Source: Candidatus Hadarchaeales archaeon (GTDB lineage Archaea > Hadarchaeota > Hadarchaeia > Hadarchaeales > Hadarchaeaceae). From it: a DNA stretch of 26,182 nucleotides. How positions within the stretch are numbered: the stretch's first letter is position 1; every line of letters begins with the position of its first letter. The stretch covers positions 1 to 26,182 of the forward strand of contig JAWCKY010000006.1 in the NCBI GenBank assembly GCA_038851365.1, read 5' to 3'. A model generated the notes under the pieces. It saw nothing but the letters and a program-made list of their open reading frames with translations, had not been told where the DNA came from and ran no database searches. Made by a program: the position numbers and the translations under genes. This document shows positions 829 to 24,982 of this stretch, in pieces.

Positions 829-881
829 CCCATCGCCAATAGCACCACGCCGCCGGCTCTCTAAAGGTTAACGCCTCGCCC

Positions 882-3200: not shown

Positions 3201-3238
3201 GTTGCCAGCCTCAAGCTCGCGCCTAGTTACCCCGGCGG

Positions 3239-4123
3239 TCACTCGATGCCGAAGCGCCTGCACTGCTCATCCACCATTCGCTGGATCTGGGCGACCTCCT
3301 CGTCGGTGAGGTGCCTGAACCTGCCCTGGAGCTTGAGGTAGTCGGCGACGGGCCTGCGCTTGGGGGGCTTGAAGGTGACCCTCAGCTGCCCATGCTCGAT
3401 CTCGTAGAGCACCCATGCGCCGGTGAGCACCGCCAGCCTGGCCACCTCGATGGTCTTGCCCGTCTCTATGCGCCAGCCGGGCACGCAGGGCGCGTGCACG
3501 TGCACGTAGGTGGGCCCCTCTATGGCGGCGGCCTTCCTGAGCTTGTTGATGAAGTCGAGCGGGTAGGCGACGGAGGCGGTGGCCACGTAGGGGGCTCCGT
3601 GGGCGGCGATGATCGCTGGCACGTCCTTCTTCGGCCTGTCCTCCCCCCTCTTCACCTTGCCTATGGGCGTGGTCGTCGTCCACGCGCCGAACGGCGTGGC
3701 CCCGCTGCGCTGTATGCCCGTGTTCTGGTAGGCCTCGTTGTCGTAGCAACAGAACAGCACGTTGTCCCCCCTCTCCACCGCGCCCGAGAGCGCCTGCAGT
3801 CCTATGTCTGCCGTGCCGCCGTCGCCGGCGATCGCCACGGATTTCACCCCCTTTTTCCCCAGCGCCTTCAACCCAGCCGCTATGCCGGCCGCCGTCGCCG
3901 CGGCGTTCTCGAAGGCGGAGTGGATCCAAGGCACCCTCCAAGCCGTCTCGGGGTAGGGGGTCGTCACCACCTCCATGCAGCCCGTCGCCATGCTGACGAT
4001 GATGTTCCTACCCAGCGCCTTCAGCAGGTACCTCATCGCCAGCACGCAACCGCAGCCCGCGCAGGCGCGGTGGCCAGGAGCTAGGAGCTCCTCCTCGGGT
4101 ACGCCGGGCGGCGCCGCCATCAT
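3239..4123 (-). CDS. porB: Pyruvate/2-oxoacid:ferredoxin oxidoreductase beta subunit (TPP-binding)
   Basis: [50 protein letters not shown]. The start overlaps the porA stop. Confidence 0.94.
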
Positions 4124-5304
4124 ATCCCCAGCCCCACCAGCTTCTCCCTCAGCCCAAGCCAGCGCACGGGCCTCTTCACCTCTCCGGTCTCCGCCGCCCT
4201 CGCCGCCGCGCGCAGCGCCTCCCTGATGTGGAGGGGCGATACATCGCGCCCGCCGAGCCCGCAGATGAAGTTCAGCAGCAAGGGCGCGCCCTCGACGTTG
4301 GCCAGCGCGCAGGAGACGTCGGCGAAGAGGGCGCCCGCCCAGCCGAGCGAGATGTCCTTCTCGAGCACGGCGACCACCTTCGCGTGCTCCAGGGCCTTCA
4401 CCAGCGCCTCTCGCGGGAAGGGCCTGTAAGCGCGCACCCTCACCAGCCCCACCCTCTCGCCCCGCCTGCGGGAACGGTCGATGAGGTCCTTCGCGGTGCC
4501 GCTCAGCGAGCCCAGCGTGAGGAGGATTATCTCCGCGTCATCGCTTCGGTAGCACTCGACCAGGCCATAGCGCCTGCCGAACCGCTTGCCGTATTCCCTG
4601 TCCACCTCGACTATCTTGTCCCTCGCCGCACGCACCGCTTCGTGCAGCATATATCTTATCTCCTGGTAGTACTCCGGCACGCCCACGGGTCCCATGGTGA
4701 CGGGCATGACGGGGTCCAAGGGGTGGCGAGGCCTGTAAGGCGGCAGGAAATCGTCGACCTCCTCCTGCTCGGGCACGTCCACGGGCTCGGCCGTGTGCGA
4801 GAGGATGTAGCCGTCGAAGCACACCATCACGGGCAGCATCAGCTCCTCGGCCACGCGATAGGCCTGCAGTATAGAGTCGAGGATCTCCTGATTGTTCTCG
4901 CAGTAGAGCTGCACCCAGCCGCTGTCTCGCACGGCCATGGAGTCCTGCTGGTCGCACCAGATGTTAAGCGGTGCCGAAAGCGCCCGGTTGGCGTTGGCCA
5001 TGACGATGGGCAGCCTGAGGCCGGCCGCGATGTAGAGCATCTCGCTCATGAGCATCAGCCCCTGCGAGGAGGTGGCGGTAAAGGCCCTGGCCCCCACGGC
5101 GGCGGCGCCTATGCAGGCGCTCATGGCGCTGTGCTCCGACTCCACCTTCATGAACTCCGCGTCCAGCTCACCGTTGGCCACGAACTCCGCGAGCTTCTCC
5201 ACTATGGCCGTCTGGGGGGTTATCGGGTAGGCGGAGATCACCTTCACGCGAGCCAGCTTCGCGGCGGTCGCGGCTGCCTCGTTGCCCGTCAACACCTGCT
5301 TCAA
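4120..5304 (-). CDS. porA: Pyruvate/2-oxoacid:ferredoxin oxidoreductase alpha subunit
   Basis: [47 protein letters not shown] start at 5304 overlaps the porD TGA (TTGA); the ORF track's extension to 5460 is spurious. Confidence 0.94.
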
Positions 5305-5579
5305 TCTCTCCCCTCCGGGACCATGGTTATGGCCTTGAAGGGACACTCGTTGGCGCAAATGCCGCAGCCCTTGCAGTAGCGGTAGTCTACCCTCGCGGGC
5401 TTGCCCTTGGAGATCGCGGGCTCCGGGCAGAACATCCAGCACATGCCGCAGCCCGTGCACTTCGCCTCGTCGATCACGGGCCTGAAGTTGCGCCAGCTCC
5501 CGGTCTCGGTCCGCGCGGTGTTACCCGGCTCGGTTATGATGGCTCCGGCGATTATCTTCAAAATATCGCCCTCAACCAT
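5301..5579 (-). CDS. porD: 2-oxoacid:ferredoxin oxidoreductase delta subunit (2x[4Fe-4S])
   Basis: TGSWRNFRP followed by CTGCGMCWMFCP and YCKGCGICANECP. An alternative TTG start at 5561 is possible. Confidence 0.93.
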   Translation of the reverse strand: MVEGDILKIIAGAIITEPGNTARTETGSWRNFRPVIDEAKCTGCGMCWMFCPEPAISKGKPARVDYRYCKGCGICANECPFKAITMVPEGRD

Positions 5580-5618
5580 CCAAGAGGCTACGTAACTTGC
5601 TAAAAAGTTTTTGTGCGT

Positions 5619-6170
5619 TCAGCCGCGTCGGTCCTCCCACAAAAGCTTCGTCCGCTCGTACGCGGCCCTCACGGCGGCCACGTTCTTCTCCGCGAGCTTG
5701 TCGCCGAAGTAGCCCCTGACCGCCTTCTCGAGGGAGTCCAGCGACACGAGCTTCGTCGCCCTCGCGAGGGCCCCTAGGATGGCCGTGTTGGTTATGGGCG
5801 CGCCGAGGGTCTCGAGGGCGATGCCCGTGGCGTCGACGATGGCGAGCTTCGCCGCGGGGAGACCGGTGGGCGCTTCCTTGGCGTTCACCACGACGACGCC
5901 GCCAGTTTTCAAGCCAGCCGCGACGTTCGTCACCTCGAGCAACGTGGGGTCCAGCACGACGACGTGGCTGGGCTCGTAAACCTGTGTTCTCGTCCTTATG
6001 GGCTTGTCGTCGATTCGCGCGAAGGCCAAGATCGGTGCCCCCCTGCGCTCGGCGCCGAAGAAGGGGAAGGCTTGGCCGTACTTGCCCTCGAGGAAGGCCG
6101 CCTCCACCAGCAGCCTGGCGGCGGTCACCGCGCCCTGCCCGCCCCGGCCGTGGAACCTCACCTCTATCAT
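5619..6170 (-). CDS. porG: 2-oxoacid:ferredoxin oxidoreductase gamma subunit
   Basis: [36 protein letters not shown]. Confidence 0.95.
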
Positions 6171-6195
6171 GCGACCATCTTACACTCATCGCCCG

Positions 6196-6210
6196 GCTAT
6201 AAGCTTTTAT
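6196..6210 (-). promoter_or_regulatory. BRE/TATA promoter of the por operon
   Basis: Minus strand ATAAAAGCTTATAGC; the TATA lies ~32 nt upstream of the porG ATG. Confidence 0.6.
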
Positions 6211-6331
6211 CCGTCGCGCTCCCCTCCGCCTCCTTGAACCTGTCGCAGACCACCACCCCTGCGCCGCCCACGAGGGGGTAGTTGGGCCTGCACTCCTGCC
6301 TTCGTCCGCACCTCTTGCACAGCGACTTCAT
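6197..6331 (-). CDS. 44-aa Cys-rich microprotein MKSLCKRCGRRQECRPNYPLVGGAGVVVCDRFKEAEGSATDKSL (C-x2-C-x5-C-x14-C)
   Basis: Below the ORF-track cutoff. A TTTAAAAA box starts 26 nt upstream of the ATG (leaderless geometry), GGTGG precedes the ATG, and there are four Cys with metal-binding spacing. Confidence 0.65.
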   Translation of the reverse strand: MKSLCKRCGRRQECRPNYPLVGGAGVVVCDRFKEAEGSATDKSL

Positions 6332-6343
6332 CGCTACCACCGC

Positions 6344-6357
6344 GGCGATTTTTTAAA
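6344..6357 (-). promoter_or_regulatory. TATA box of the 44-aa microprotein gene
   Basis: Minus strand TTTAAAAAATCGCC; the same element occurs at 7203-7217 and 21311-21322. Confidence 0.6.
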
Positions 6358-6363
6358 TTTTTT

Positions 6364-6379
6364 TGTTACATATGTAACA
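6364..6379. promoter_or_regulatory. Perfect 16-bp palindromic operator TGTTACATATGTAACA
   Basis: Exact inverted repeat, extendable over 6359-6384 with one mismatched pair. It lies 7-22 nt upstream of the microprotein TATA. The core TACAnnTGTA equals the CopY/BlaI-type box. Confidence 0.7.
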
Positions 6380-6474
6380 TAAAACAACTTCGCCCCGCAA
6401 CGGCGGCTCGTTCGCTTCCCGAGAAGGTCTGGGCTGGCTTATCCCTCATGTTGCAGCTTCGCGTTGAGGTAAGC

Positions 6475-6765
6475 CTACTCGCTCGCGAGCATCCCTCGAA
6501 GCTCCGGGTGTCGCTCGAAGTAGCGCTTGGCGTAGCTGCAGTTGGGCACGATCTTAAGCCCTCCCTCCCTCGCGTATTCGATGGCGGCCCTGGTGAGCCT
6601 CTCCGCCAAGCCTCGGCCGCGATGCTCCTCGGGCGTGAAGGTGGCATCGATGTGCATGGTCTCGCCCTCTAGGTGGTACTTCAGGTACGCGTATTTTCCC
6701 GGGGCGAGCCTGATGAGGAACATGCTCGCCCGCCGCTCGACGTTCGCGAACGCGGGATCAACCAA
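6475..6765 (-). CDS. Small GNAT-family N-acetyltransferase (YjdJ/Acetyltransf_CG-like)
   Basis: IDATFTPEEHRGRGLAERL acetyl-CoA motif and C-terminal VPNCSYA. TTG start with GAGGAGG upstream; overlaps the upstream NDT stop. Confidence 0.88.
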   Translation of the reverse strand: MVDPAFANVERRASMFLIRLAPGKYAYLKYHLEGETMHIDATFTPEEHRGRGLAERLTRAAIEYAREGGLKIVPNCSYAKRYFERHPELRGMLASE

Positions 6766-7180
6766 GCCTCCTCAGCTCCTCGACGAGCTCGTCCAAGTTC
6801 CTCGCCAGCGCACGTATGGCCTGGGCCAGCATGTTGTTGAGCTCCTCGTCCCTCGCGAACACCCTCATGTCCGTCTTGAGGCCTATCACTGGCTTTCCCT
6901 TAGCGAACGCGTAGCCCACCTCGAAGGCCGTGCCGCTGTCGACGTCCGCCCCGTCGAGGATCGCCACGACGACGTCCGCTTGCTTCACGCCGGCCAAGTC
7001 GCGCTCGAAGATCTCGCGGTAGGCTCGCCTGCCCTTCTTGCGGAGGAGCTCGTCCAGCTTGCCCACGTCGCGCTGGGGCAGGAAGGTCTCGAAGCCATGC
7101 CTTCGTAGGTGTTCATCCACCTTGAGGTTGAACTCCCTTTCGGCCTGGGAGAAAAGCGGTCCGGCGATGAAGACCCTCAA
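6758..7180 (-). CDS. Nucleoside 2-deoxyribosyltransferase-family N-glycosidase
   Basis: VFIAGPLFS, FLPQ, FERDLAGVKQADVVVA, DSGTAFEVGYA. TTG start at 7180 with GGTGG upstream. The 354-aa ORF-track product is an artefact of reading antisense through rnpB. Confidence 0.9.
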   Translation of the reverse strand: MRVFIAGPLFSQAEREFNLKVDEHLRRHGFETFLPQRDVGKLDELLRKKGRRAYREIFERDLAGVKQADVVVAILDGADVDSGTAFEVGYAFAKGKPVIGLKTDMRVFARDEELNNMLAQAIRALARNLDELVEELRRLG

Positions 7181-7202
7181 GTCACCACCGCTCAACCTTG
7201 CG

Positions 7203-7217
7203 CGCGATTTTTTAAAA
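7203..7217 (-). promoter_or_regulatory. TATA box of the NDT-GNAT operon
   Basis: Minus strand TTTTAAAAAATCGCG, ~36 nt upstream of the TTG. Confidence 0.6.
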
Positions 7218-7225
7218 GGTATGCA

Positions 7226-7242
7226 GATGTTTGTGAAACATC
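7226..7242. promoter_or_regulatory. Inverted repeat GATGTTT-GTG-AAACATC between the divergent NDT and rnpB promoters
   Basis: Perfect 7-bp arms with a 3-nt spacer, ~10-26 nt upstream of the NDT TATA. Confidence 0.5.
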
Positions 7243-7266
7243 CCTCGCGCTGCTCTAAAGCGCCAA

Positions 7267-7283
7267 GGGAAACCTTCTTAACC
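7267..7283 (+). promoter_or_regulatory. BRE/TATA promoter of rnpB
   Basis: GGGAAACCTTCTTAACC, with the TATA-like part ~27-30 nt upstream of the P1 5' end. Confidence 0.55.
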
Positions 7284-7304
7284 GAGTTGGGGCTAAAATT
7301 GTAT

Positions 7305-7600
7305 GCCGGCGAGTCGGTGGGCGGCCGTCGGGCGAAGGCCTGAGGAAACTCCGTCCATCCGGCGGGTTCGCGGGTCCGCGAGGACCTGGCCGAGAGGCCA
7401 GACCCTGGCACAGAAACGACACCTCCCGGCCCGCGCGATGACGCGGGGACGTCGAGGTCGGGCCGAGCGAGGTTGAAACGGCCAATCCGCGAGATGCAAG
7501 GGCAAGTCGCCGCCGATGAACGCCCGCCCGAGGCGGGTGGTAGCCCGCTCAGCAGAATGCCGCCTGAAAACAGAAGACGGGTTACGGCCGACTCGTCGGC
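7305..7600 (+). ncRNA. rnpB: RNase P RNA, archaeal type A
   Basis: P1 GCCGGCGAGUCGGU/GCCGACUCGUCGGC; GAGGAAACUCC (CR-I); P8 GGUCC-GCGA-GGACC and P9 UGGCC-GAGA-GGCCA; ACAGAAAC; UGAAAC; GCAAG; 3' AACAGAAGACGGGUUA, which pairs in P4 with CCGUC. Presence of P8 argues for type A rather than type M. Confidence 0.96.
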
Positions 7601-7618
7601 GCTCGAAGGGGTGGGAGA

Positions 7619-7837
7619 ATGGGCAAGAAGTGGGGACACTACAAGGCGGGCGGTCGAAGCCAGCCGGTGGCATGCATCTACTGCGGTCGCCTCACGCCTC
7701 GCATCAAGGCGATCGTCGTCCACAAGGGGTTCAGGATCGACCCTAAGATCCCGGGCATAGACAGGCGCCGCGTCTTCACCTCCGGCATCAAGGGCTACGC
7801 TTGCATCTCCTGCGCGAAGCACCGCGGCCTGATTTGA
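7619..7837 (+). CDS. rps26e: Small ribosomal subunit protein eS26-like
   Basis: QPVACIYCGRLTPRIKAI and YACISCAKH align with eS26 QPIRCxNCxRxVPKDKAI and YCVSCAIH. SD-like GGGGTG precedes the ATG. Confidence 0.85.
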   Translation: MGKKWGHYKAGGRSQPVACIYCGRLTPRIKAIVVHKGFRIDPKIPGIDRRRVFTSGIKGYACISCAKHRGLI

Positions 7838-8567
7838 TCGCCCTGACGATCTCCCTTATCCTCTCGGCCCTGTTTTTGACCTCCTCCACCAGCGTGCCGG
7901 TCACCACGATATCGGCTCCCGCCTCGACGCGCTCAGCCGCAGCCTCTGGTGTCCTTATGCCCCCTCCCACGAGGAGCGTCGCGTCCACAGCTCGCCTAAC
8001 TGCTTGGACCATCTCGACCGGCACGGGTGCCTCGGCGCCCGAGCCCGCCTCCAGGTAAACGAACCTCATGCCCAAGTACTGCGCCGCGAGCGCGTACGAG
8101 GCCGCGAGCTCCGGCTCGTCGCGGGGGATCAGGTTCGCCTTTCCCACCCTCCCGGCGGCGCCGCCGGGCTCCACCACTAGGTAAGCCATGGGTATTGCCT
8201 CTAGCCCGAGCTCCTTGACGCGCGGGGCGCCCAGCCTCTGGGCACCGGTTATGTAGTAGGGGTCTGCCGAGTTCAGCATGCTCATGAAGAAGATGGCATC
8301 CGCATGCCCGCTTATGCAGAGCTCGCTCGCGGGGAAAAGGATCACCGGCAGGTCCACCGCGTCCTTTATCGCGAGCACGGTCTCGTCGAGCAGTTTGCCG
8401 CCAGCGCCGGTGGAGCCCCCGACCATTATCCCGTCGCTCCCCCCCTCGGCCGCGCTCGAGGCCATCCTCCCGGCGACCTCAGGGGACTGCTTTGCAGGGT
8501 CTATGAGCGAGAGGTGCGCGGCCCCCTCGCGCTCGATGACCCTCAGCAAATACTTCTCTACCCTCAT
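7788..8567 (-). CDS. Geranylgeranylglyceryl phosphate synthase (group II GGGPS)
   Basis: [43 protein letters not shown] overlap with rpl40e. Confidence 0.95.
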
Positions 8568-8710
8568 CCCCTCGGCTCCTTAGCTTTCGGGCGCAGCGCG
8601 CCGTAGCCGCACTTCCTGCACTTCGTCGCCTTCCAGGGGTTACGTGCGTTGCAGCGCCTGCATATCTTGACGTTGAACAGGCGCCTCTCGGCGACCTCGA
8701 ACCTCGCCAT
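8564..8710 (-). CDS. rpl40e: Large ribosomal subunit protein eL40 (48 aa)
   Basis: Not in the ORF track. [48 protein letters not shown] has the eL40 ICxxCNARNP..CRKCG..LRPK signature. Confidence 0.96.
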
Positions 8711-8741
8711 GGTAGATCCCGGAATCGATATCTCGCCCGAG

Positions 8742-8752
8742 CTATAAATTTG
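8742..8752 (-). promoter_or_regulatory. TATA box of rpl40e-GGGPS, overlapping the nnr stop codon
   Basis: Minus strand AAATTTATAG; TATA ~38 nt upstream of the rpl40e ATG. Confidence 0.55.
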
Positions 8753-10262
8753 CAGCTGCCCTCGCCTCGGAGAAGACCGCCGGCAGCTTCTCGATGACGT
8801 CGCTGGCGGTGAACTCGTATCCCCTCTCCAGCTTGCAGAGGTCGCCCGCCCTACCGCAGGCGAAGGCCCCCGCGACGGCGGCGCGGAAGGGCTCCACCCC
8901 CTGCGCCAGGAAGGCGCCTACTATGCCCGCGAGCACGTCGCCCGTGCCGCCCACGGTCATGCCCGGGTTGCCGGTGTAGTTGAGGGCGAACTCGCCGCTG
9001 GGGGAGGCGATGACGTCGACGTGGGCCTTCAGCAGCAGCACGCAGCCGAGCTCCTTCGCGGCGGTCCTCACCTGCTCGAGCCTGCCCTCGACGTCCGCCG
9101 GCAGGTCGATGCCCGTGAGCAGCTCGAATTCCCTGGCGTGGGGCGTGAGCACCCATCCCCGCCCGCGCAACAGCTTCCGCTCGGACGCGATCGCCTTCAG
9201 CCCGTCGGCGTCGAACAGCGCAGGCAGCCCGGGGTGCCTCTGCGATAGCGTGCGGGCCAGCTCGATTACAGCATCCCTCGTGGCGTTCGAGGTGCCCAAG
9301 CCCGGCCCCACCACCAGGGCGCTGGAGCGCTCGAGTTGCGCCCGCAGCGCCGGGAGCGCCTCGGGCGTCAGGTCTTTGCCTGGGAGCTTGGCCACGATGA
9401 GGTCGGGCGAGAAGGAGCTTATGACCGTCGCCGCCTCCGCGGGTGCGGCTATTGTAGCCAGGTCGACGCCAGCCCGAAGCGCGGCCAGCGCGACTAGAGC
9501 GGGGGCGCCAGTGTAGCTCGAGCCCCCTCCTATGACCAGCAGCCTCCCGTGTTCGCCCTTGTGCGACTCCGGCCTCCGCTCGGGCAGCGCCATGAGCACG
9601 TCGCCCGGGCCCGCGGTGGTCTCGGCCTCCCTCGGCAGGCCAATGTCGGCGACGATCACCTCGCCCGCGTAGCGCTTGGCCTTCTTCAGCCCGGGCTTCA
9701 CGTCGTGGAAGGTGACCGTGAGGTGGCACCTCACCGCTTCGGGCGAGGCCTCGCCGGTCAGCGAGTCCACGCCGGTGGGCACGTCGACGGCCACCTTGTA
9801 GGCCCTCATGGAGTTGATCGCCCTGGCGGCGCTGGCGATGGGCTCTCGCGGCCTTCCGGCCGCCCCAATGCCGAGCATCGCGTCTATCACCACGTCGGCC
9901 TTCTTCTCCTTGAGCGCTCGGAGCTCCGACGAGTCCCTGACCACTAGGCATTTGACGCTCCTCCGCAGGTTCTGGAGCGCCTGCCAGTTGGCCCTCGCCT
10001 CGGGGGTGGCGATGAGCTTGGGGTCGCCTAGGAGCACCACCTCGACGCTAGCGCCCGCGTTGGCCAGATGCCTCGCCGCCGCGAAGCCGTCTCCGCCGTT
10101 GTTGCCGAGTCCGGCGAACACCAACACGCGCTTGCCGACGACGCCTCGCCTAGCCACCTCCCTAGCCACCGCTGCGCCCGCGTTCTCCATCAGCAGCAGC
10201 CTAGGCACGCCCAGCCAAGCGGCGTTCGCCTCGAGCGCTAGCATGCGCTGCGGGGTTATCAT
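8742..10262 (-). CDS. nnr: Bifunctional NAD(P)H-hydrate epimerase/dehydratase
   Basis: [78 protein letters not shown] 10262 is preceded by GGAGG. Confidence 0.96.
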
Positions 10263-10300
10263 TTGCCTCCAAAGCAAGTTGTCTTACAGCAATAAAAAAG

Positions 10301-10463
10301 GTAGGTGCCTAGGGGGGTTCCGATTTACGGAGATAAAGTTTCCCCTGCCGCCGGCCCCGTGATAGATATCAAAACGGCGGGGATATCTTGTCCGATTAGC
10401 GCGATGGTCCCCCGCTATTTCAGATCAGCATCGGTCACGGGACCAATGTCGATTATAGGCTAC
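10301..10463. ncRNA. Candidate structured non-coding RNA or cis-regulatory element of unknown class
   Basis: Nested helices visible by eye: 10353-62/10435-44, 10364-70/10382-88, 10392-96/10430-34, 10397-401/10413-17, 10311-17/10340-46. Possible pseudoknot 10348-53/10375-80. No convincing ORF. Strand unresolved. Confidence 0.4.
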
Positions 10464-10499
10464 GAGAGTTTGAACAAGTGGAAAAGATCATCGCCGCAA

Positions 10500-10516
10500 C
10501 GAAAGCCTTTTTAAAC
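10500..10516 (+). promoter_or_regulatory. BRE/TATA-like promoter, distal to the lysine operon
   Basis: CGAAAGCCTTTTTAAAC has the same pattern as the rnpB promoter; predicted start ~10535. It also reads TTTAAAAA on the minus strand. Confidence 0.5.
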
Positions 10517-10609
10517 CCGCGCCGAATAGCTAGCTGGGGCAGAAGATGGGGGAGGGCTTTAAGGGCTGATGGCTTTAAGGCGCTCGTCGCTGGCTAGCCC
10601 GCCCTCGTC

Positions 10610-10622
10610 GAGCTTATTAAAT
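10610..10622 (+). promoter_or_regulatory. Proximal TATA box of the lysine operon
   Basis: GAGCTTATTAAAT, ~45 nt upstream of the TTG, with a GGTGA SD at 10649-10653. Confidence 0.55.
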
Positions 10623-10658
10623 ACCCGCTCGTTTTCATTAATGCCGTCGGTGATCTCC

Positions 10659-12014
10659 TTGTCCAGACCGAGTTGGGTCAGGGGCGGGCCGCGAGTGGTC
10701 AAGCCGATCCCAGGTCCGAGGGCGAGGAGGATCATCGAGCGCGACGAGCGCGTGATCTCGCCCTCCTACACGCGAGCCGACCCGCTGGTGGGAGAACAAG
10801 GCTGGGGCGTCTACGTGCGCGACGTCGACGGCAACGTTTTCCTCGACCTCTCGTCCGGCATGTTCGTGCTCAACTACGGCTATTCCCACCCCGCCCTGGT
10901 TCGGGCGGTGCAGAGGCAGGCCGCCAGGCTGACGCACTTCGCTGGCACCGACTTCTACTACGAGCTTCAGGTAGAGCTAGCGGAGGAGCTAGTTTCGCTC
11001 GCGCCGGGCAGCTTCGAGAAGCGCGTGTTCTTCGCCAACAGCGGCACGGAGGCGGTGGAGGCGGCGTTCAAGTGCGCCCGCTGGCACACCCGCCGCCCAC
11101 GCATGATCGCGTTCGCTGGCGCCTTCCACGGCCGAACCTTCGGCGCGATGAGCCTGTCGTCGAGCAGCGCGACGCATCGCAAGTTCTTCGAGCCCTTGGT
11201 GCCGGGCGTCGCCTTCGCGCCCTTCCCCTACTGCTATCGCTGCCAGTTCGGGCAGAGCTACCCCGGCTGCGACTTCCTGTGCTTCGAGTACCTCCGAAGC
11301 TCGCTCTCCACCACCACGCCTCCCGAGGAGGTGGCGGCGGTGATAACCGAGCCCATCCAGGGCAACGCGGGCTACATCATCCCCCCGCCCGAGTTCTACC
11401 CCATGCTCAAGGAGCTTTGCGAGGAGCACGGCTGGCTTCTCATAGCGGACGAGATCCAGACGGGCCTGGGCAGGACGGGCAAGATGTTCGCGATGGAGCA
11501 CTGGCGCGTGACGCCGGACATCATCTGCCTGGCTAAAGCCCTAGCGGGGGGGATGGTACCCATGGGCGCCACCGTAGCGCGCGCCGACGTCATGGATTGG
11601 TCGCCCGGCGCGCATGCCAGCACCTTCGGCGGCAACCTCCTCGCCTGCGCCGCAGCCCTCGAGGGCTTGAGGGTCCTGAGGCGGCAGAAGTTGGTCGAGC
11701 GGGCGGAGAAGCTCGGCAGGCTGGCGCTGGCGAGGCTGCAGGAGATGGCAGAGGAAAGCAAGCTCGTGGGGGAGGTCAGGGGCAAGGGCCTGCTGCTGGC
11801 GGTGGAGCTCGTGAAGGACCGCGAGCGCAAGCAGCCAGCGGTGGAGGAGCGCGACGCCGTCGTGAGGGAGGCCTTGAACAGGGGGATAATAGTCTTCCGG
11901 GGAGGGCGCTCGACCATCCGCATCGCCCCTCCCCTTATCATAAGCAGGAAGGAGCTGGAGCTGGGGCTAGATCTGTTTCAGCAGGCGCTCGAGGAGGTGG
12001 AGAGGGCATGCTGA
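10659..12014 (+). CDS. Class III PLP aminotransferase (GABA/ornithine-AT-like fold), first gene of the DAP lysine operon
   Basis: [45 protein letters not shown] (PLP Lys), STFGGN, VRGKGLL, IRIAPPL. TTG start inferred from the SD and TATA; the 30-aa Ser-rich extension from 10569 looks spurious. Confidence 0.92.
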
Positions 12015-13321
12015 TGTTGAAATCCCACTTCGAGGTCGACGAGCGGGGCCACCTGATAATAGGGGGCTGTGATTCCGTTGAGCTGGCGGAGCGCTTCGGC
12101 ACGCCGCTTTACGTCGTCGACGAGCAGCGGGTCCGGGAGAACTACAGGCGTTTCTACCGCGCCTTCGCTCGGCGTTGGCGCGACGTCATGGTTTGCTATG
12201 CCTACAAGGCGAACTCCAACCTCGCGATCTGCAAGATATTGCAGAGCGAGGGCGCCGGTGCGGAGGTAAGCTCGCTCTGCGAGCTCAACATAGCCCGCCG
12301 CGTGGGCGTGCCCGGCGAGCGGACGGTCTTCAACGGCAACAACAAGTCGTCAGCCGAGCTGGAGCGGGCGATAGCGGAGGGCGTGCTCATAAACGTCGAC
12401 AGCCTCCAGGAGCTTCACGCCGTCGGCCGCATCGCGTCTAGGCTAGGCCTCCGCGCGCGCATCGGCTTCAGGGTGAACCCAGATATCAGCGCGCCCACCC
12501 ATCCCTACATCGCCACGGGCTTGAGGGAGAGCAAGTTCGGCCTCGACGTCGCCAGCGGCCAAGCCCTCGAGGCATACCGCACGGCCTCCAGGATGGAAAC
12601 CGTCGAAGTGGTGGGCATCCATTGCCACATCGGCTCCCAGATCTTGGATCCCGCGCCCTTCGAGGAGGAGGCGGAGAGGCTGATGGCCATCGTCGCCCAG
12701 CTGAAGGCCGAGCTCGACTTGGACATCCGTTTCCTCGACATGGGAGGCGGCCTCGGCATCCCCTACAAGCCAGGCGACGTGGAACTGCATCCCGAGCAGC
12801 TGGCCTCCAGGGTGGTGCCCGTAATCGAGCGGGAGGTGGACGAACACGGACTGCTGCCCCCGACGCTCGTCTTCGAGCCGGGGCGCTACATCGTGGGCGA
12901 TGCAGGCGTGCTCCTCGCGAGGGTCGGCTACTGCAAGGAGAGGCAAGGGATGCCCGGCTGGGTGGCGGTCGATGCCGGCATGAACGCGCTGATAAGGCCA
13001 GCGCTCTACGGGGCCTACCACCACATCGAGGTCGCGAACAAGATGACCGCCGAGCCAGAGCAGGTGGTGAACGTCGCCGGTCCCCTATGCGAGTCCGGCG
13101 ATTTCCTGGGCAAGGAGCGAAGGTTGCCTCGCGTGGAGCCGGGGGACCTGCTGGCGATCTTCGACGTGGGGGCTTATGGGCTGGCGATGTCCAACCAGCA
13201 CACGGCCCAGCCTCGTCCGGCGATGGTGCTCGTGAACTCGGGCAGGGCGGAGGTGGTGAGGCTGCGCGAGACCTGTGAGGACCTCACTCGCTTGGACCGC
13301 ATGCCAGGGTGGTTGACGTGA
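12008..13321 (+). CDS. lysA: Diaminopimelate decarboxylase
   Basis: YAYKANSN, GLRESKFG, HCHIGSQI, DMGGGLG, FEPGRYIV, GPLCESGD, GAYG. Start is 12008 or 12014 (TGATG). Confidence 0.95.
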   Translation: MLMLKSHFEVDERGHLIIGGCDSVELAERFGTPLYVVDEQRVRENYRRFYRAFARRWRDVMVCYAYKANSNLAICKILQSEGAGAEVSSLCELNIARRVGVPGERTVFNGNNKSSAELERAIAEGVLINVDSLQELHAVGRIASRLGLRARIGFRVNPDISAPTHPYIATGLRESKFGLDVASGQALEAYRTASRMETVEVVGIHCHIGSQILDPAPFEEEAERLMAIVAQLKAELDLDIRFLDMGGGLGIPYKPGDVELHPEQLASRVVPVIEREVDEHGLLPPTLVFEPGRYIVGDAGVLLARVGYCKERQGMPGWVAVDAGMNALIRPALYGAYHHIEVANKMTAEPEQVVNVAGPLCESGDFLGKERRLPRVEPGDLLAIFDVGAYGLAMSNQHTAQPRPAMVLVNSGRAEVVRLRETCEDLTRLDRMPGWLT

Positions 13322-14547
13322 GGCGGATCGTCGTGAAGTTCGGCGGGATGAGCGTGGGCGACGGCGAGAGGGTACGCCTGGCCGCGAGGTCCGTCGTCCG
13401 CGAGCGCGAGAGGGGCGCACAGGTGGCGGTGGTGGTTTCGGCGATGGGTCACGCCACCGATGAGTTGCTCGAGGCCGCGAGGTCCAGCACCGGCGGCAAG
13501 ATCAGCCCCGCGGAGCTGGACGACATCCTGGCGATGGGCGAGCGAACGAGCGCCAGAATATTCGCCTCCGCCCTTCGCAGCCTGGGCGCCGATGCGCGCT
13601 GCATAGACCCCGCCCACGAGGAGTGGCCGGTCGTCACGGACAGCTCGTTCGGCAACGCGAGGGTGGATTTGCCCGAAACCCGGCGGAGGGTGCGGAGGTT
13701 CATCCTGCCTCTGCTAGAAGAGGGGGCGGTTCCGGTTATCTGCGGTTTCTTGGGCAAGGACGCCGAGGGTCGCATCACAACGCTTGGCAGGGGAGGCAGC
13801 GATATCACGGCATTCCTCATCGGCGCCTGCCTCGACGCGGACGAGGTGATCTTGGTCAAGGACGTGGAGGGGGTGATGAGCGGCGACCCGAGCGCGGTCA
13901 AGGGCGCGAGGTTGTTGGAGAGCATCTCCGTGGAGGAGATGAGGGACTTGGCGAGGTATGGCGCCAGGGTCCTTCACCCGCGCGCGCTGGATTATAAGGA
14001 CCCAAAGATAAACGCTAAGGTGATACACTTCCGCCACGGAGACCTCTCCGCGCGCGGCACCGTGATAACTGGGCCAAGGGGTGGTAGCATGGGGGTGAGC
14101 CTGTACGAGAAGCCGTTGGCGATGCTGACGGTGGTGGGGGAGGAGATGCAATCGACGCCGGGTGTGCTGAGGAGGGCGGTGGAGCCGTTGAGCAAGCAGA
14201 ACATAAACATCTTCGGCGTCTCGATAGGTCCCAGGTCCTTTTCGCTCTACGTCAACAAGCGCGAGGCCAAGCGCGCGATCGAGCTCCTGCATCGGGTCGT
14301 GGTGAAAAACAAGGTGATGAAGTCGGTGACGAGCGAGGAGGACATAGCCATGATCATCGCGGAGAGCGAGAAGTTCATCGAGACGCCAGGGGTCATCGCC
14401 AAGCTGACGGAGCCGCTGGCCAAGGAGGGCATAAACATCATAGAGATCTTCTCGAGCAGGGCCTCGATCACCTTCTTCGTGAATTGGGCCGATGGGGAGC
14501 GAGCGGTCAAGCTCTTGGAGCAAGCCATGAGGGAGGTGGGTAGTTGA
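13318..14547 (+). CDS. lysC: Aspartokinase with two ACT domains
   Basis: VVKFGG, VVVSAMG, GERTSA, TTLGRGGSD, DVEGVMSGDP, VLHPRAL. GTGA overlap with lysA. Confidence 0.95.
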   Translation: MRRIVVKFGGMSVGDGERVRLAARSVVRERERGAQVAVVVSAMGHATDELLEAARSSTGGKISPAELDDILAMGERTSARIFASALRSLGADARCIDPAHEEWPVVTDSSFGNARVDLPETRRRVRRFILPLLEEGAVPVICGFLGKDAEGRITTLGRGGSDITAFLIGACLDADEVILVKDVEGVMSGDPSAVKGARLLESISVEEMRDLARYGARVLHPRALDYKDPKINAKVIHFRHGDLSARGTVITGPRGGSMGVSLYEKPLAMLTVVGEEMQSTPGVLRRAVEPLSKQNINIFGVSIGPRSFSLYVNKREAKRAIELLHRVVVKNKVMKSVTSEEDIAMIIAESEKFIETPGVIAKLTEPLAKEGINIIEIFSSRASITFFVNWADGERAVKLLEQAMREVGS

Positions 14548-15437
14548 GCGTGTTTAAAGGGGCCTACACGGCTATGGTGACGCCCTTCGATGAGAAGGGC
14601 GAGGTGGATGAGGAAGGGCTGCGCGCGAACGTCGAGTTCCAAATAAGGAAGGGCATCCACGGCTTGGTGCCGGTTGGCACGACGGGCGAGTGTGCGACCC
14701 TCTCCTACGAGGAGCACAAGAGGGTGATAGAGATCACCGTCGACGCCGCTAAGGGCAGGGTTCCCGTCCTCGCGGGCACGGGAAGCAATAGCACTTGGGA
14801 GGCGATAATGCTCACCGAGCACGCCAAGGAGGTCGGAGCGGATGGGGCGCTGCTGGTGGCGCCCTACTACAACAAGCCCACCCAGCGAGGTCTCTACGAG
14901 CACTTCAAGAAGATCGCGGAAACGGTGGACATTCCGCAGGTGCTTTACAACATCCCCTCCCGCACCGGCGTCAACATCGAGCCAGAGACCATGGCCAAGC
15001 TGGCGGAGCTAAAAAACGTGGTCGGCGTGAAGGAGGCGAGCGGCAGCTTGGATCAGGTCATGAGGATCATCCAGCTGACCAGCGGCAAGGAGTTCTTCGT
15101 GACCTCCGGCGAGGACTCGCTGACCTTCCCCATCCTGGCGCTTGGGGGGATCGGCGTGATCTCGGTGGCGTCCAACTTGGTGCCGGACAGGGTCGCGGGA
15201 ATGGTGGACGCCTTCTTCGAGGGCAGGCTAGAGGAGGCCAGGCGGATCCACTACGAGCTGATGCCTTTGTTCAAGGCTTTGTTCATCGAGACTAACCCCT
15301 CGCCCGTGAAGGCGGCGATGGAGATGATGGGCATGCCAGCTGGCAAGCCGAGGCTCCCGTTGGTGGAGCTCCAGCCGGAGAACAGGGAGAAGCTGCGCAG
15401 GGTATTGATGGACATGGGGTTGGTGAAGGGTGATTAG
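14544..15437 (+). CDS. dapA: 4-hydroxy-tetrahydrodipicolinate synthase
   Basis: AMVTPF, GTTGE, AGTGSNST, PYYNKP, LYNIPSRTG, GVKEASG, FIETNPSPVK. TTGA overlap. Confidence 0.96.
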   Translation: MSVFKGAYTAMVTPFDEKGEVDEEGLRANVEFQIRKGIHGLVPVGTTGECATLSYEEHKRVIEITVDAAKGRVPVLAGTGSNSTWEAIMLTEHAKEVGADGALLVAPYYNKPTQRGLYEHFKKIAETVDIPQVLYNIPSRTGVNIEPETMAKLAELKNVVGVKEASGSLDQVMRIIQLTSGKEFFVTSGEDSLTFPILALGGIGVISVASNLVPDRVAGMVDAFFEGRLEEARRIHYELMPLFKALFIETNPSPVKAAMEMMGMPAGKPRLPLVELQPENREKLRRVLMDMGLVKGD

Positions 15438-16254
15438 GGTCGCGGTCTGCGGCGCGGGCGGGCGGATGGGTAGGCTAGTGGTCAAGGAAATAGCAAGCCA
15501 ACCCGACATGCGACTCGTCGCGGCCGTGGACGCGCCCCACACGCCGCTTGCAGGTAAGGACGCCGGTGAGCTCGCGGGCATCGAAGGGCTCGGCGTGCGC
15601 ATGGTGGGCGCAGAGGGGCTGAGGGCGGTGCTTGCAGAGGTAAGGCCGGATGTGCTGGTGGACTTCACGAACCCCGAGGCGGCGCTCGAGAACGTCCGCG
15701 CGGCGGCCGAGAGCGGCGTGAGGGTCGTCGTAGGGACCACCGGCTTCACCCCGGAGCAGAGAGAGGAGATGTTGAAGACGATAAGGGAGGCCGGCATTGC
15801 CGCGGTGGTGGCGCCCAACATGTCGGTAGGCGTAAACGTGTTCTTCAAGCTCCTGGAAGTGGCCGCCGAGCTGCTGGGAAAGGGCTACGACGTGGAGATC
15901 GTGGAGGCGCATCACTCGCACAAGGTCGATGCTCCCAGCGGAACGGCGCTGAGGGCAGCGGAGATAATCGCCGAGAAGCTGGGGGTGGGCAAGGACAGCA
16001 TAAGGTGCGGCAGGCCGGCGGGCAGGCAGCCTAGGCTCAAGGGGGAGATCTGCATCCACTCCATCCGCGCCGGCGATATCGTCGGCGAGCACATCGTGAC
16101 CTTCGCCGCCCCGGGCGAGCGCCTCGAGCTCGTGCACCGCGCCCACAGCAGGGAGGCCTTCGCGAAGGGGGCAATGCTCGCGATACGCCACGTCCTCAAG
16201 TGCGGGGCGGGAGAGGTGCACGATATGCAGGACGTGCTCGGCCTCCGCAGGTGA
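15430..16254 (+). CDS. dapB: 4-hydroxy-tetrahydrodipicolinate reductase
   Basis: GAGGRMG, DFT, GTTG, PNMSVGVN, EAHHSHKVDAPSGTA, RAGDIVGEH. Confidence 0.96.
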   Translation: MIRVAVCGAGGRMGRLVVKEIASQPDMRLVAAVDAPHTPLAGKDAGELAGIEGLGVRMVGAEGLRAVLAEVRPDVLVDFTNPEAALENVRAAAESGVRVVVGTTGFTPEQREEMLKTIREAGIAAVVAPNMSVGVNVFFKLLEVAAELLGKGYDVEIVEAHHSHKVDAPSGTALRAAEIIAEKLGVGKDSIRCGRPAGRQPRLKGEICIHSIRAGDIVGEHIVTFAAPGERLELVHRAHSREAFAKGAMLAIRHVLKCGAGEVHDMQDVLGLRR

Positions 16255-16258
16255 TCTC

Positions 16259-17077
16259 TCAATCCTTCAGCACGTAGGCGAGCGCTTCCCGAAGGTCGGA
16301 GACCTCGACGATCTCGACCCCCTGCACGTCTACGCGTTGTCCCCGCGGGACGAGCAGCAACCTAGCGCCCCAGTCGCGAGCGGCGATCGCCTTCTCCTCA
16401 ACCGAACCAACCCAACCTATGGTGGCGTTGGGCCTTATCGCCCCCGTGATCAGCACCTGGTTGTCGACCTGCTTGCCGTGCAGGCAGGCGTAGATCGCGA
16501 TCGCCATCGCCGCCCCGGCGCTGGGTCCGTCCACCCTGATCAACTTCCCGGGACTTCCAAACCTGATCACAACCCCCACGCCGAGCGAGTCCCTGTTTTC
16601 CAGAAAGGCGACCGCCGCCGCTGCGTCCTTCGCGGACCTTTGAAGGTCCTCACCATAGGAGACGTAGGAGAGGTCGACCGACACCCAATTCTCCTCCCCG
16701 ATCAACGTCACGCGCACCGAGATGACCTCGCCGACGTTTTCCTCGGAAATGCCGATGGCGAAGTACTCCACCTCCCTTGGCCTGAGGGCCTCCAGCCTTG
16801 ACCCAAGCTCTCTTACCTCCTCGCTAAGCCTTCCCACCTGTCCACGCAGCGCTCCCAGCGCGGCCTCGCTAGCCCTCAAGTTCTCCGTGAGCTTTTCGAT
16901 GAGGGCCATCGCCTCCTCCACCGCTCGGCGGGTTTCGAGCAACTCCTCCTCGCGTTGCCCGAGTTCTCGGCTGAGCCGGTGCACTTCGAGCGAGAAGAAA
17001 ACGATGGCGCCGGTCAACACCATAGCGACCAGCGAAAGCGCGATTACCGGAGCCTTCGCTCCACGTCTTCTCCTCAT
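16259..17077 (-). CDS. Membrane-anchored, ATP-independent Lon-type (S16) Ser-Lys protease with a coiled-coil stalk
   Basis: Basic N-terminus plus hydrophobic helix, heptad-like segment, then VDGPSAG (Ser) and TGAI..IGWVGSVEEKA (Lys); no Walker motifs. Alternative GTG start at 17086. Confidence 0.85.
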   Translation of the reverse strand: MRRRRGAKAPVIALSLVAMVLTGAIVFFSLEVHRLSRELGQREEELLETRRAVEEAMALIEKLTENLRASEAALGALRGQVGRLSEEVRELGSRLEALRPREVEYFAIGISEENVGEVISVRVTLIGEENWVSVDLSYVSYGEDLQRSAKDAAAAVAFLENRDSLGVGVVIRFGSPGKLIRVDGPSAGAAMAIAIYACLHGKQVDNQVLITGAIRPNATIGWVGSVEEKAIAARDWGARLLLVPRGQRVDVQGVEIVEVSDLREALAYVLKD

Positions 17078-17111
17078 GCTGCTCACGGAACACTCAAATT
17101 TTGTTCAAGCT

Positions 17112-17204
17112 CTAATTCCTTCGACCGTGGATGGGACAGGGGCGCCGTAACTTGCAGAAACGGCACTTCTCGGGCGGTGGGGGCTGAGGCAAGGGTTTCA
17201 CCAT
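17112..17204 (-). CDS. 30-aa microprotein MVKPLPQPPPPEKCRFCKLRRPCPIHGRRN (C-x2-C-x5-C-x2-H)
   Basis: Hand-translated, with a C3H Zn-ligand pattern including CPIHG. It lies downstream of a minus-strand TTTATA (17267-17262) and just upstream of the S16 protease. GGGAGG abuts the ATG, so SD spacing is poor. Confidence 0.45.
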   Translation of the reverse strand: MVKPLPQPPPPEKCRFCKLRRPCPIHGRRN

Positions 17205-17256
17205 CCTCCCATACTTCCTTCTGGGCAAGGGGGCCACCGACCTGCAATAGGTTCCG

Positions 17257-17274
17257 AGGGGTATAAATCCCCCT
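17257..17274. promoter_or_regulatory. Bidirectional TATA box flanked by an AGGGG/CCCCT inverted repeat (asd versus microprotein/protease)
   Basis: AGGGGTATAAATCCCCCT reads TATAAA on + (asd ATG 38 nt downstream) and TTTATA on -. Confidence 0.55.
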
Positions 17275-17299
17275 AGGAATGAAAATAGCGGGGATTTCC

Positions 17300-18367
17300 A
17301 TGGCCAGGATCCCGGTCGGTGTGCTGGGCGCCACTGGCACCGTGGGGCAGCACTTCGTCAAGCTGCTCTTGGATCACCCGTGGTTCGAGCTGGTGGCGTT
17401 GACGGCGTCCGAGCGCTCTGCCGGCAAGCCCTACGCCGAAGTGGCGAAGTGGTATCTCAGCGACGAGGTGCCTCGGGAGATAGCGGACGTCGAGGTTAGG
17501 CCCACCGACCCCAAGGCCGTGGAGGACGTAAAGTTGCTGTTCTCCGCCATGCCGGCCGACGAGGCGCAGAGGATCGAGCCGGCCTGCGCGGAGGCCGGAT
17601 TCGTCGTGAGCTCCAACTCGAGCAACTTCCGGATGGACCCGGATATTCCCCTGATAATCCCGGAGGTCAACCCCGATCACCTCGCGCTCATCGACGTGCA
17701 GAGGGAGAAACGAGGCTGGGACGGTTACATAGTGAAGAACCCCAACTGCACCACCATCACCTTCGTGCTGCCGCTCAAGCCCCTGTACGATGAATTCGGC
17801 ATCCGTCGGGTCTTCATCTCTTCGATGCAGGCCCTGTCCGGTGCCGGATGGACGGGCGTGCCTTCCATGGCGATAGAGGATAACGTCATCCCATTCATCG
17901 CCAAGGAGGAGGACAAGTGCGAGGAGGAGCCGCTCAAGCTGCTCGGCTCGCTCAGGGACGGTCGCGTCGAGCTCGCGCCCATTCGGGTGAGCGCCAGCTG
18001 CCATCGCGTCCCAGTGCTCGACGGTCACACCATAGCGGTGTTCGTGGAGCTGGAGCGGGAGGCCACGCCCGCTGAGGCGGTGGAGGTGTTGAGCAACTTC
18101 AGGGGCGTGCCGCAGGAGCTGGAGCTGCCGACGGCGCCAAGGCAACCGGTTATCGTGTCGCCCGGTGAGGACATGCCACAGCCGAGGTACGCGAGGAACG
18201 CCGGCTCCGTGCCGGGCATGGCGGTGGTCGTGGGCAGGGTTCGAGGCGACCGAGCTCTCCCCAACGGCATCAAGTTCGTTTGCTGCAGCCACAACGTGAT
18301 CCGCGGAGCGGCGGGGGCAGCGGTGCTCAACGCCGAGCTGCTGAGGGCGAGAGGTTACCTGAAGTAA
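17300..18367 (+). CDS. asd: Aspartate-semialdehyde dehydrogenase (archaeal type)
   Basis: GVLGATGTVGQ, SNSSNFRM, PEVN, NPNCTT, QALSGAG, CHRVPVLDGH, HNVIRGAAG. ATG 17300 preferred over 17279 because of the TATA position. Confidence 0.96.
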   Translation: MARIPVGVLGATGTVGQHFVKLLLDHPWFELVALTASERSAGKPYAEVAKWYLSDEVPREIADVEVRPTDPKAVEDVKLLFSAMPADEAQRIEPACAEAGFVVSSNSSNFRMDPDIPLIIPEVNPDHLALIDVQREKRGWDGYIVKNPNCTTITFVLPLKPLYDEFGIRRVFISSMQALSGAGWTGVPSMAIEDNVIPFIAKEEDKCEEEPLKLLGSLRDGRVELAPIRVSASCHRVPVLDGHTIAVFVELEREATPAEAVEVLSNFRGVPQELELPTAPRQPVIVSPGEDMPQPRYARNAGSVPGMAVVVGRVRGDRALPNGIKFVCCSHNVIRGAAGAAVLNAELLRARGYLK

Positions 18368-18411
18368 TCAGCCGGTCTCGGCGATTCTTCGCGCTGTAAC
18401 TTTTGCACTCG

Positions 18412-18460
18412 CCAAATTTGGGGCATTTTCGGCGATCTCTCTCAAAGGAGTTTAAATAAG
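18412..18460 (+). promoter_or_regulatory. nrdD promoter with an upstream palindrome
   Basis: CAAAGGAG-TTTAAATA (18443-18458) and the 10-bp palindrome CCAAATTTGG (18412-18421). Confidence 0.5.
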
Positions 18461-18492
18461 TATCAGAGCAAGATAAACTGAGAGCGGTGCGG

Positions 18493-20610: not shown

Positions 20611-20751
20611 ATTACGAGCTTCGAATAGGTGTGGTAGCGGGGGGTGGAATCTCAGAGGGAAGGCTTACCATCCCTCCCTTGAACCACCGACCTCCGGGTC
20701 TCACAGGAGCGCCAAACCCACGGCTCGACGCCTTATGAGCTTCGCCCGTGG

Positions 20752-21294: not shown

Positions 21295-21310
21295 GCTTTA
21301 AGCTCATCGC

Positions 21311-21390
21311 CGCGATTTTAAACAGTTTTCGGCGCTGAATTTTTGCTGAAATTACTAATAGGAATATTTTTAATCGAAAAATATAAATAA
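21311..21390. promoter_or_regulatory. AT-rich divergent promoter region
   Basis: Minus TATA at 21322-21316, plus TATA (ATATAAATA) at 21381-21389, and the inverted repeat TATTTTT-N5-AAAAATA at 21365-21383. Confidence 0.55.
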
Positions 21391-21419
21391 AGCTGAAACC
21401 CCCTTGCATCGGGGTAAGC

Positions 21420-24116: not shown

Positions 24117-24204
24117 TTTACCATCGCCTGACAACTATAGTTCATTCGACTTGAAAGTTTCGCTGGTTTGGATAGCTAAAGCGTTTATCCTCACCGGAGC
24201 GATT

Positions 24205-24969: not shown

Positions 24970-24982
24970 TTGCTCGATGAGC

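Follow-up and report, generated by a model that had tools for sequence, protein, structure and literature searches.

In the uncultured archaeal phylum Hadarchaeota, a class III pyridoxal 5′-phosphate (PLP)-dependent aminotransferase encoded at the head of a lysine operon probably aminates tetrahydrodipicolinate to diaminopimelate (DAP), the step between DapB and LysA. Aminotransferases of this class are not known to act on the free intermediate here. We studied its gene in a 26,182-nt stretch of DNA (contig JAWCKY010000006.1, positions 1 to 26,182; the window) from a Hadarchaeota metagenome-assembled genome (MAG) of 810 kb that comprises 100 contigs and is 79% complete. An original prediction, made from the letters of the window alone, had suggested a transaminase other than DapL that converts tetrahydrodipicolinate to DAP. 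That suggestion is now supported by the missing known routes, by the linkage of the gene to lysA and the dap genes, and by its loss in a pattern complementary to Ddh or to DapL plus DapF. The best explanation is that the protein represents a Hadarchaeota-specific class III (fold-type I) PLP subfamily that was recruited into lysine synthesis.

The aminotransferase gene and its neighbours on the forward strand are as follows.

10659..12014, forward strand: class III PLP aminotransferase, 451 aa, first gene of the operon (PF00202, NF004426, AlphaFold2 model and conserved operon position)
12008..13321, forward strand: lysA, diaminopimelate decarboxylase (TIGR01048, 504.6 bits against a cut-off of 297.9)
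13309..14547, forward strand: aspartate kinase, lysC (NF005159, 514.8 against 379)
14544..15437, forward strand: dapA, 4-hydroxy-tetrahydrodipicolinate synthase (TIGR00674, 388 against 206)
15430..16254, forward strand: dapB, 4-hydroxy-tetrahydrodipicolinate reductase (TIGR00036, 314.6 against 122)
17279..18367, forward strand: asd, aspartate-semialdehyde dehydrogenase (TIGR00978, 445.8 against 301)

Each of the five genes downstream of the aminotransferase thus scores above its NCBIfam equivalog cut-off. The TGA stop codon of the aminotransferase (12012–12014) shares bases with the lysA ATG (12008 or 12014), and the overlaps continue downstream, with 13 nt between lysA and lysC, 4 nt between lysC and dapA, and 8 nt between dapA and dapB. 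The asd gene follows dapB at a distance of 1,025 nt, with a Lon_C-like gene on the opposite strand in the gap. These junctions agree with the coupling to lysA-lysC-dapA-dapB, and with the position of asd about 1 kb further on, that had been read from the window before.

Tetrahydrodipicolinate is converted to meso-DAP by four established routes: those of the succinylase, the acetylase, the dehydrogenase and the DapL aminotransferase. The genes for this part of the pathway had been described as missing locally, and our profile searches of the 26,182-nt window found no dapL, dapF, ddh, dapD or dapE. The 810-kb genome, at its 79% completeness, likewise yielded no DapF, no Ddh above cut-off, no DapD and no M20 deacylase. 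Two class I genes resembling those for aspartate aminotransferase (AspAT), C29 and C16, score 281–304 bits on the DapL models, for which the cut-offs are 507 and 593; we rejected them as DapL, as they fall far under these values and have AspAT-type families as their best matches. We searched a phylum sample of 61 genomes, 53 of which are at least 80% complete. None of the 41 genomes of family f1 and none of the 6 genomes of family f2 yielded a DapF, and no genome of the sample has a DapL above the cut-off of either model. In genus g15, four of the six genomes carry DapF, and each of the four has, immediately beside it, a class I aminotransferase that matches the DapL models best (403–420 bits). 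The only DapF outside g15, in G047 (L116, G047:C28), is probably a binning contaminant, as it lies on a 4.7-kb contig with 42% G+C, compared with 54% for the genome and its operon contig. Ddh scores well above cut-off in three genomes only, all from genus g4 (G049, G057 and G009), and was confirmed by PF16654; the proteins of G049 and G057 reach 391–395 bits. A complete known route is therefore absent from what we searched of the window genome and of 47 genomes of families f1 and f2, with the g4 Ddh and the g15 DapL-like/DapF pair as the exceptions in the phylum.

The acyl routes bear on a different reading of the same gene, namely a DapC/ArgD-like N-acyl-DAP aminotransferase working with an acyltransferase and a deacylase that are too divergent to be recognized. 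There is precedent, as ArgD, itself of class III, serves Escherichia coli and Salmonella as N-succinyl-DAP aminotransferase (PDB 2PB0 is so named), and Hadarchaeota genomes do encode generic hexapeptide-repeat proteins that score 42–67 bits on DapD_Ac. However, the near-closed genomes G006 (3 contigs), G003 (4 contigs) and G004 (9 contigs) contain no DapD above cut-off and no DapF, and their M20 matches are marginal (21–25 bits) and indicate no real deacylase. Real M20 matches (109–113 bits) occur only in G011 and G015, both without a DapD above cut-off. The aminotransferase itself scores 342 bits on TIGR00707 (argD), under the cut-off of 410; a separate true ArgD, with the motif EPIQGEGG, is encoded on contig C100 of the window genome; and no acyl-related gene is linked to the operon. 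We consider an N-acyl substrate unlikely.

Conserved linkage is the second line of evidence that the aminotransferase acts on tetrahydrodipicolinate. An orthologue (58–97% identity) is present in 50 of the 61 genomes, and in all 14 Hadarchaeota loci on genome contigs with flanking sequence (14/14) it lies directly 5′ of lysA-lysC-dapA-dapB. The same gene order was observed in the g15 and g16 loci, in G006, G061 and G063, in an MSBL1 single-cell genome and in GCA_043821745, and it persists at aminotransferase identities down to 58–67%. Apart from this one MSBL1 genome, the close homologues that carry an organism name are from Hadarchaeota/Hadesarchaea MAGs. In G059, the C terminus of the aminotransferase lies at the contig end. 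The sole exception to the linkage is G062, in which the operon is split (L167/L170, G062:C7; L169, G062:C18) and the aminotransferase gene is kept but stands alone beside nnr. Here, lysA-lysC-dapA-dapB-asd is found on another contig, and a 269-aa gene that is XdhC/CoxI-like by eye abuts the lysA start. In a maximum-likelihood tree, the operon enzymes are monophyletic, with a support of 99 in the Shimodaira–Hasegawa-like approximate likelihood ratio test (SH-aLRT), and their branching is consistent with vertical descent. Tree and neighbourhood survey together extend what the original prediction had seen at a single locus: the operon enzymes form one clade, and every orthologue with a readable flank, except that of G062, is linked to lysA and dap genes. 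We also considered whether the g15 orthologues are pseudogenes and rejected this, as their apparent stop codons are the natural stops, reached one or two codons early.

Three assembled operons, those of G038, G049 and G057, lack the aminotransferase; in these, nnr is followed by ~210–230 nt and then by lysA. G038 carries a DapL-like gene and DapF side by side; Ddh is present in G049 and in G057. The contigs with these replacing genes are either large or of the same G+C content as the rest of the genome. Because the intergenic sequences of G049 and G057 are nearly identical, we count the two as one loss event. In other genomes without a hit, either the contig stops within the 5′ part of the operon (G056, G029 and G046) or lysA is unassembled (G052, G060 and G041), and G002, which belongs to another class, has no lysA. 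Among the 61 genomes, every readable operon thus either contains the aminotransferase or belongs to a genome in which a known route was found. As relatives lose the gene only when they carry a known route, the aminotransferase most likely replaces the usual DAP-making enzymes.

We next turn to the protein. It matches PF00202 over residues 49–450 (407.4 bits against a cut-off of 30.5), which is its sole Pfam match, and NF004426 (PRK05769; 581.2 bits against 552), the name of which, ‘acetyl ornithine aminotransferase family protein’, is an annotation label. It belongs to none of PF00155, TIGR03540, TIGR03542 and NF006756; judged by these profiles, it is not a member of the DapL family, a difference in family that leaves a DapL-like action unaffected. 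The AlphaFold2 model has a predicted local distance difference test score of 91, and its top Foldseek match is PDB 7VNO, with a template modelling (TM) score of 0.92. GabT structures match at TM 0.88–0.92, and an archaeal Ala/Ser racemase, a broad-specificity racemase and Ile 2-epimerase are also among the nearest structures (TM 0.91). The catalytic features, with residues counted from nt 10641, are the following.

11349..11372, forward strand: EPIQGNAG motif, residues 237–244; Asn242 (11364–11366) is at the position of the Glu switch and of the racemase Asp
11535..11537, forward strand: Lys299, the PLP Schiff-base lysine, invariant in the alignment and aligned with GabT K268
11133..11135, forward strand: Arg165 (AFHGRT), the distal-carboxylate arginine, invariant in the alignment
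11919..11921, forward strand: Arg427 (IRIAPP), the alpha-carboxylate arginine, invariant in the alignment
10860..10883, forward strand: lid loop M74-F75-V-L77-N78-Y79-G-Y81, with clade-specific residues from the specificity-position analysis described below

Ungapped HMMER coordinates, with an offset of 31 to E. coli GabT, place Asn242 at position 211, K299 at K268 and I272 at V241. Asp270, the aspartate at the pyridine nitrogen, is invariant and aligns without gaps with GabT D239, and the GabT substrate arginines R141 and R398 are matched by R165 and R427. EPIQGNAG and both arginine sites, which had been noted from the single sequence, are thus confirmed for this protein, and the two arginines are kept across the alignment.

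In GabT, Glu211 neutralizes Arg398 in the amine half-reaction, and the lid residue Ile50 probably aligns with M74. Structures of the corresponding GabT mutants include PDB 1SZK (E211S), 1SZS (I50Q) and 1SZU (V241A). The Glu switch of 2-oxoglutarate-dependent omega-aminotransferases is missing from the Hadarchaeota protein, which has Asn242 at the aligned position. In 120 of the 120 closest homologues, the residue here is N, S, T or G, with no E or D among them; it is Glu in all 64 extra-phylum homologues with a readable motif (64/64; 46–53% identity), and these show no dap linkage, save for a single WOR-3 locus in which dapA/dapB lie at a distance of 3 kb. The original prediction had argued from the asparagine. 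What is conserved is the absence of Glu and Asp; asparagine itself is not, since S, T and G occur as well. We compared 98 operon-type with 65 Glu-type sequences in a specificity-position analysis and observed the following active-site differences, which are fixed between the two types.

Lid loop 74–81: M-F-x-L-N-Y-x-Y in the operon type, I-A-x-C/T-S/A-T-x-H in the Glu type
Position 47: Glu/Asp in the operon type, Tyr in the Glu type
Position 148: Trp in the operon type, Tyr in the Glu type
Position 265: Trp in the operon type, Ile in the Glu type
Position 306: a one-residue insertion in the operon type, none in the Glu type
Positions 419, 421 and 429: also different between the two types

We rejected the motif alone as a predictor of function, as the N/T-type proteins P0141, P0228 and P0243 (~40–45% identity) have no dap neighbours.

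These features suggest how the enzyme might work. Its substrates would be L-2-amino-6-oxopimelate, the open form of tetrahydrodipicolinate, and an amino donor, probably glutamate, and 2,6-diaminopimelate would be formed by ping-pong transamination of the ordinary type on Lys299-bound PLP. As N, S, T or G stands in for the masking carboxylate of omega-aminotransferases (Glu211 in GabT), Arg427 would always be exposed and thus permanently free to bind alpha-keto or alpha-amino acids by their alpha-carboxylate. Arg165 would hold the distal carboxylate, and lid loop 74–81, Glu/Asp47 and Trp148/Trp265 may shape the pocket for the longer DAP skeleton. The choice of substrate and donor and the part assigned to each residue are inferred.

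Several observations weigh against this assignment. The genomes are MAGs, and absence means that a gene was not found in the genomes searched. The aminotransferase and a known route coexist in G009 (Ddh) and in G033, G036 and G017 (DapL-like plus DapF), although these genomes look like intermediate stages of displacement. The loss pattern comprises only two independent events, and so is suggestive but no statistical proof. D, A, H, N, V and other residues occupy the switch position in many unlinked subfamilies of the wider family. Every genome encodes class I AspAT-like aminotransferases, which could in principle serve as DapL. Finally, no source of epimerization among the known types (DapF, Pro-racemase, Asp/Glu racemase and Alr-fold) is conserved in the family.

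The last point bears on product stereochemistry. LysA acts on meso-DAP, which it decarboxylates at the D-centre. In the Ddh-only genomes G049 and G057, LysA is 92–93% identical to that of the aminotransferase-only genome G006 of the same genus; these LysA proteins should therefore share one substrate, and a pathway through the aminotransferase must then end in meso-DAP. We rejected cofactor-independent racemases as the epimerase, as the Asp/Glu racemase family (PF01177) was found in G000, the window genome, and G001 only, and the Pro-racemase fold (PF05544) in 0 of 29 genomes. We also rejected DapF2, an Alr-fold epimerase (PMC13759103): PF01168 matches besides LysA are sporadic (D-Ser-dehydratase-like only in g1, YhfX-like only in g4) and provide no conserved candidate. 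We note that the genus of the window has an Asp/Glu-racemase-family gene (171 bits; G000:C94:6812-7429, minus strand) and an Alr-fold D-Ser-dehydratase-like gene (PF01168 plus PF14031; G000:C67:3869-4546, minus strand), each missing from most of the family. These two are possible local helpers for DAP epimerization, but they are not conserved.

Either the aminotransferase yields or equilibrates meso-DAP, or it makes LL-DAP and is followed by an epimerase of another kind. Formation of meso-DAP by the aminotransferase itself is plausible given its racemase relatives, though the racemase Asp is absent. A tentative version of the proposal, which we hold to be possible but doubtful, is that this single enzyme takes tetrahydrodipicolinate to meso-DAP, by D-amination or by transamination plus epimerization, and so replaces both DapL and DapF. 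It is suggested by the lack of a conserved known epimerase, by the similarity of the LysA proteins and by the fact that both displacing modules, Ddh and DapL plus DapF, give meso-DAP. In g15, DapL arrived together with DapF, which fits the lack of a free-standing epimerase.

The same facts can be arranged in another way, with the operon protein as a PLP-dependent DAP epimerase that replaces DapF and one of the ubiquitous class I AspAT-like enzymes as the enzyme that aminates tetrahydrodipicolinate. The fold-type I racemases and epimerase among the nearest structures, the lack of a known epimerase conserved in the family and the meso-DAP product of both displacing modules are all compatible with such an arrangement. 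However, the catalytic Asp of the racemases has given way to N, S, T or G, the protein stays far under the racemase models (NF045634, 344 against 800 bits; NF004171, 339 against 639; the NCBIfam racemase models range over 338–344 bits for cut-offs of 639–800), and both transaminase-type substrate arginines are invariant. An epimerase is accordingly an improbable reading.

Loss of the Glu switch predicts alpha-amino and alpha-keto substrates generally, and not DAP in particular. The protein might thus be an alpha-amino-acid aminotransferase that feeds the pathway elsewhere, for example by converting oxaloacetate to aspartate, with other genes filling the step after DapB; aspartate kinase is encoded in the operon and asd lies nearby. 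This would leave unexplained why the gene is lost exactly alongside Ddh or DapL plus DapF, and class I AspAT-like enzymes are already there, which makes a role in aspartate supply very unlikely. Least probable is an ordinary ornithine, acetylornithine or GABA (gamma-aminobutyrate) omega-aminotransferase that merely adjoins the lysine operon: although the protein passes the NF004426 cut-off and its closest solved structure is Pyrococcus horikoshii 7VNO (46% identity), the Glu switch is missing from all 120 close homologues, a separate ArgD is present, the stop/start overlap with lysA and the phylum-wide synteny speak against coincidence, and it would again go unexplained why the gene was lost in just those genomes that have Ddh or DapL/DapF.

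The enclosing open reading frame of the aminotransferase spans 10569–12014 on the forward strand. Homologues are ~451 aa long and their alignment begins at residue 6–7 of the translation from 10641. As both length and alignment start fit a TTG start codon at 10659, we favour this start, in agreement with the one chosen in the original prediction. One further element was read from the sequence upstream.

10614..10623, forward strand: TATA-box-like element TTATTAAATA, ~36 nt 5′ of the TTG start

TTATTAAATA is a putative promoter of the lysine operon. Rfam scans at E ≤ 1 returned no riboswitch in the operon leader (10200–10750) and no family in the intergenic region between nnr and the operon (10301–10463).

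Other observations concern the protein and its surroundings. Cys198, Cys201, Cys210 and Cys214 (11232–11282) form a C-x2-C-x8-C-x3-C segment (PYCYRC...GCDFLC). Its conservation within the operon clade is 90% or higher, and many bacterial Glu-type homologues have it as well; the same region of 7VNO has no Cys. The segment may be a structural metal site of the subfamily. Another NF004426-type paralogue is encoded in Hadarchaeota, with ~50% identity; it has Ala as its switch residue (EPIQGAGG, EPIQGAAG or EPIQGAEG) and forms its own clade (SH-aLRT 100). In the window genome, this paralogue is split over contig ends (G000:C77:1-570 and G000:C13:7215-8018, both minus strand), and its relatives are L143–L160. 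In five genomes, a ~310-aa gene lies downstream of it, and the G042 copy of that gene is annotated as a Mem_trans (PF03547) transporter. We rejected the paralogue as a member of the lysine pathway, as it pairs with this transporter gene and not with lysine genes.

The slot between dapB and asd is filled in the window by a Lon_C-like S16 gene (16259–17086, minus strand). In G049, of genus g4, a polysaccharide pyruvyl-transferase gene (PF04230; L126:12322-13395) lies between dapB and an asd-like gene, and a comparable gap in other loci (L022–L028) suggests the same insertion. A homocysteine-biosynthesis gene (PF01837 plus CBS) is located at 21420–22925, 3 kb past asd, so that the region clusters several functions that consume aspartate semialdehyde. 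G+C content falls from ~65% (window 1–18000) to ~55% (18000–26182) near nrdD, with a genome mean of 57%. This shift is not an assembly chimera, as the 97%-identical contig L017 has the same gene order.

A full-text literature search that included the GapMind 2026 survey (PMC13759103), with most subscription journals outside its reach, turned up neither a tetrahydrodipicolinate aminotransferase of class III nor an account of how Hadarchaeota make lysine. If the proposed function is true, a non-orthologous enzyme would be added for the known step from tetrahydrodipicolinate to DAP, and a gap that automated reconstructions leave in the lysine pathway would be closed for a deep-subsurface archaeal phylum whose members would otherwise be taken for lysine auxotrophs. 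The protein would also be a natural case in which loss of the Glu switch turned an omega-aminotransferase scaffold into an alpha-amino-acid enzyme. Should the enzyme also set or invert the second stereocentre, this would be a new form of D-centre formation in a fold-type I transaminase, and if it reaches meso-DAP alone, it would constitute a fifth variant of the diaminopimelate pathway.

Among known systems, DapL (EC 2.6.1.83; TIGR03540/TIGR03542) carries out the same reaction as proposed here, an unacylated amination between DapB and LysA, and both enzymes are fold-type I PLP enzymes. However, DapL belongs to class I/II (PF00155) and the Hadarchaeota enzyme to class III (PF00202), and DapL requires DapF afterwards, whereas no DapF was found in the window genome. 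Ddh (TIGR01921, PF16654) resembles it in that one gene fills the same gap, and is present in G049 and G057, whose operons lack the aminotransferase; it differs as an NADPH-dependent reductive aminase of unrelated fold that gives meso-DAP directly. ArgD/DapC (for example, PDB 2PB0) shares Pfam family and fold with the Hadarchaeota enzyme, and demonstrates that amination at the 6-oxo group of a pimelate skeleton is within the scope of a class III active site, but it keeps the Glu switch, takes an N-acylated substrate and depends on DapD and DapE.

The closest characterized relatives are the archaeal ornithine omega-aminotransferases PH1423 and TK2101, with 46% identity, TM 0.92 and the same AFHGRT and IRxxPP arginines; we take PDB 7VNO to be P. 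horikoshii PH1423. PH1423 is listed as an ornithine delta-aminotransferase (PMC9986279). These enzymes differ in having EPIQGEGG, a lid of IGVMNVGL in place of MFVLNYGY, no four-Cys segment and no linkage to lysine genes. The fold-type I racemases (PH0782, PH0138, TK1211 of Thermococcus kodakarensis and Ile 2-epimerase of Lactobacillus buchneri) share clade and fold with the Hadarchaeota enzyme and indicate that inversion at the alpha-carbon is possible on this scaffold, but they have Asp at the switch position, where the Hadarchaeota enzyme has N, S, T or G. In PH0782, the catalytic D234 acts with K291 (PMC6047364); the spacing of these two residues, 57 positions, equals that of N242 and K299, and the offsets to 9WQZ agree.

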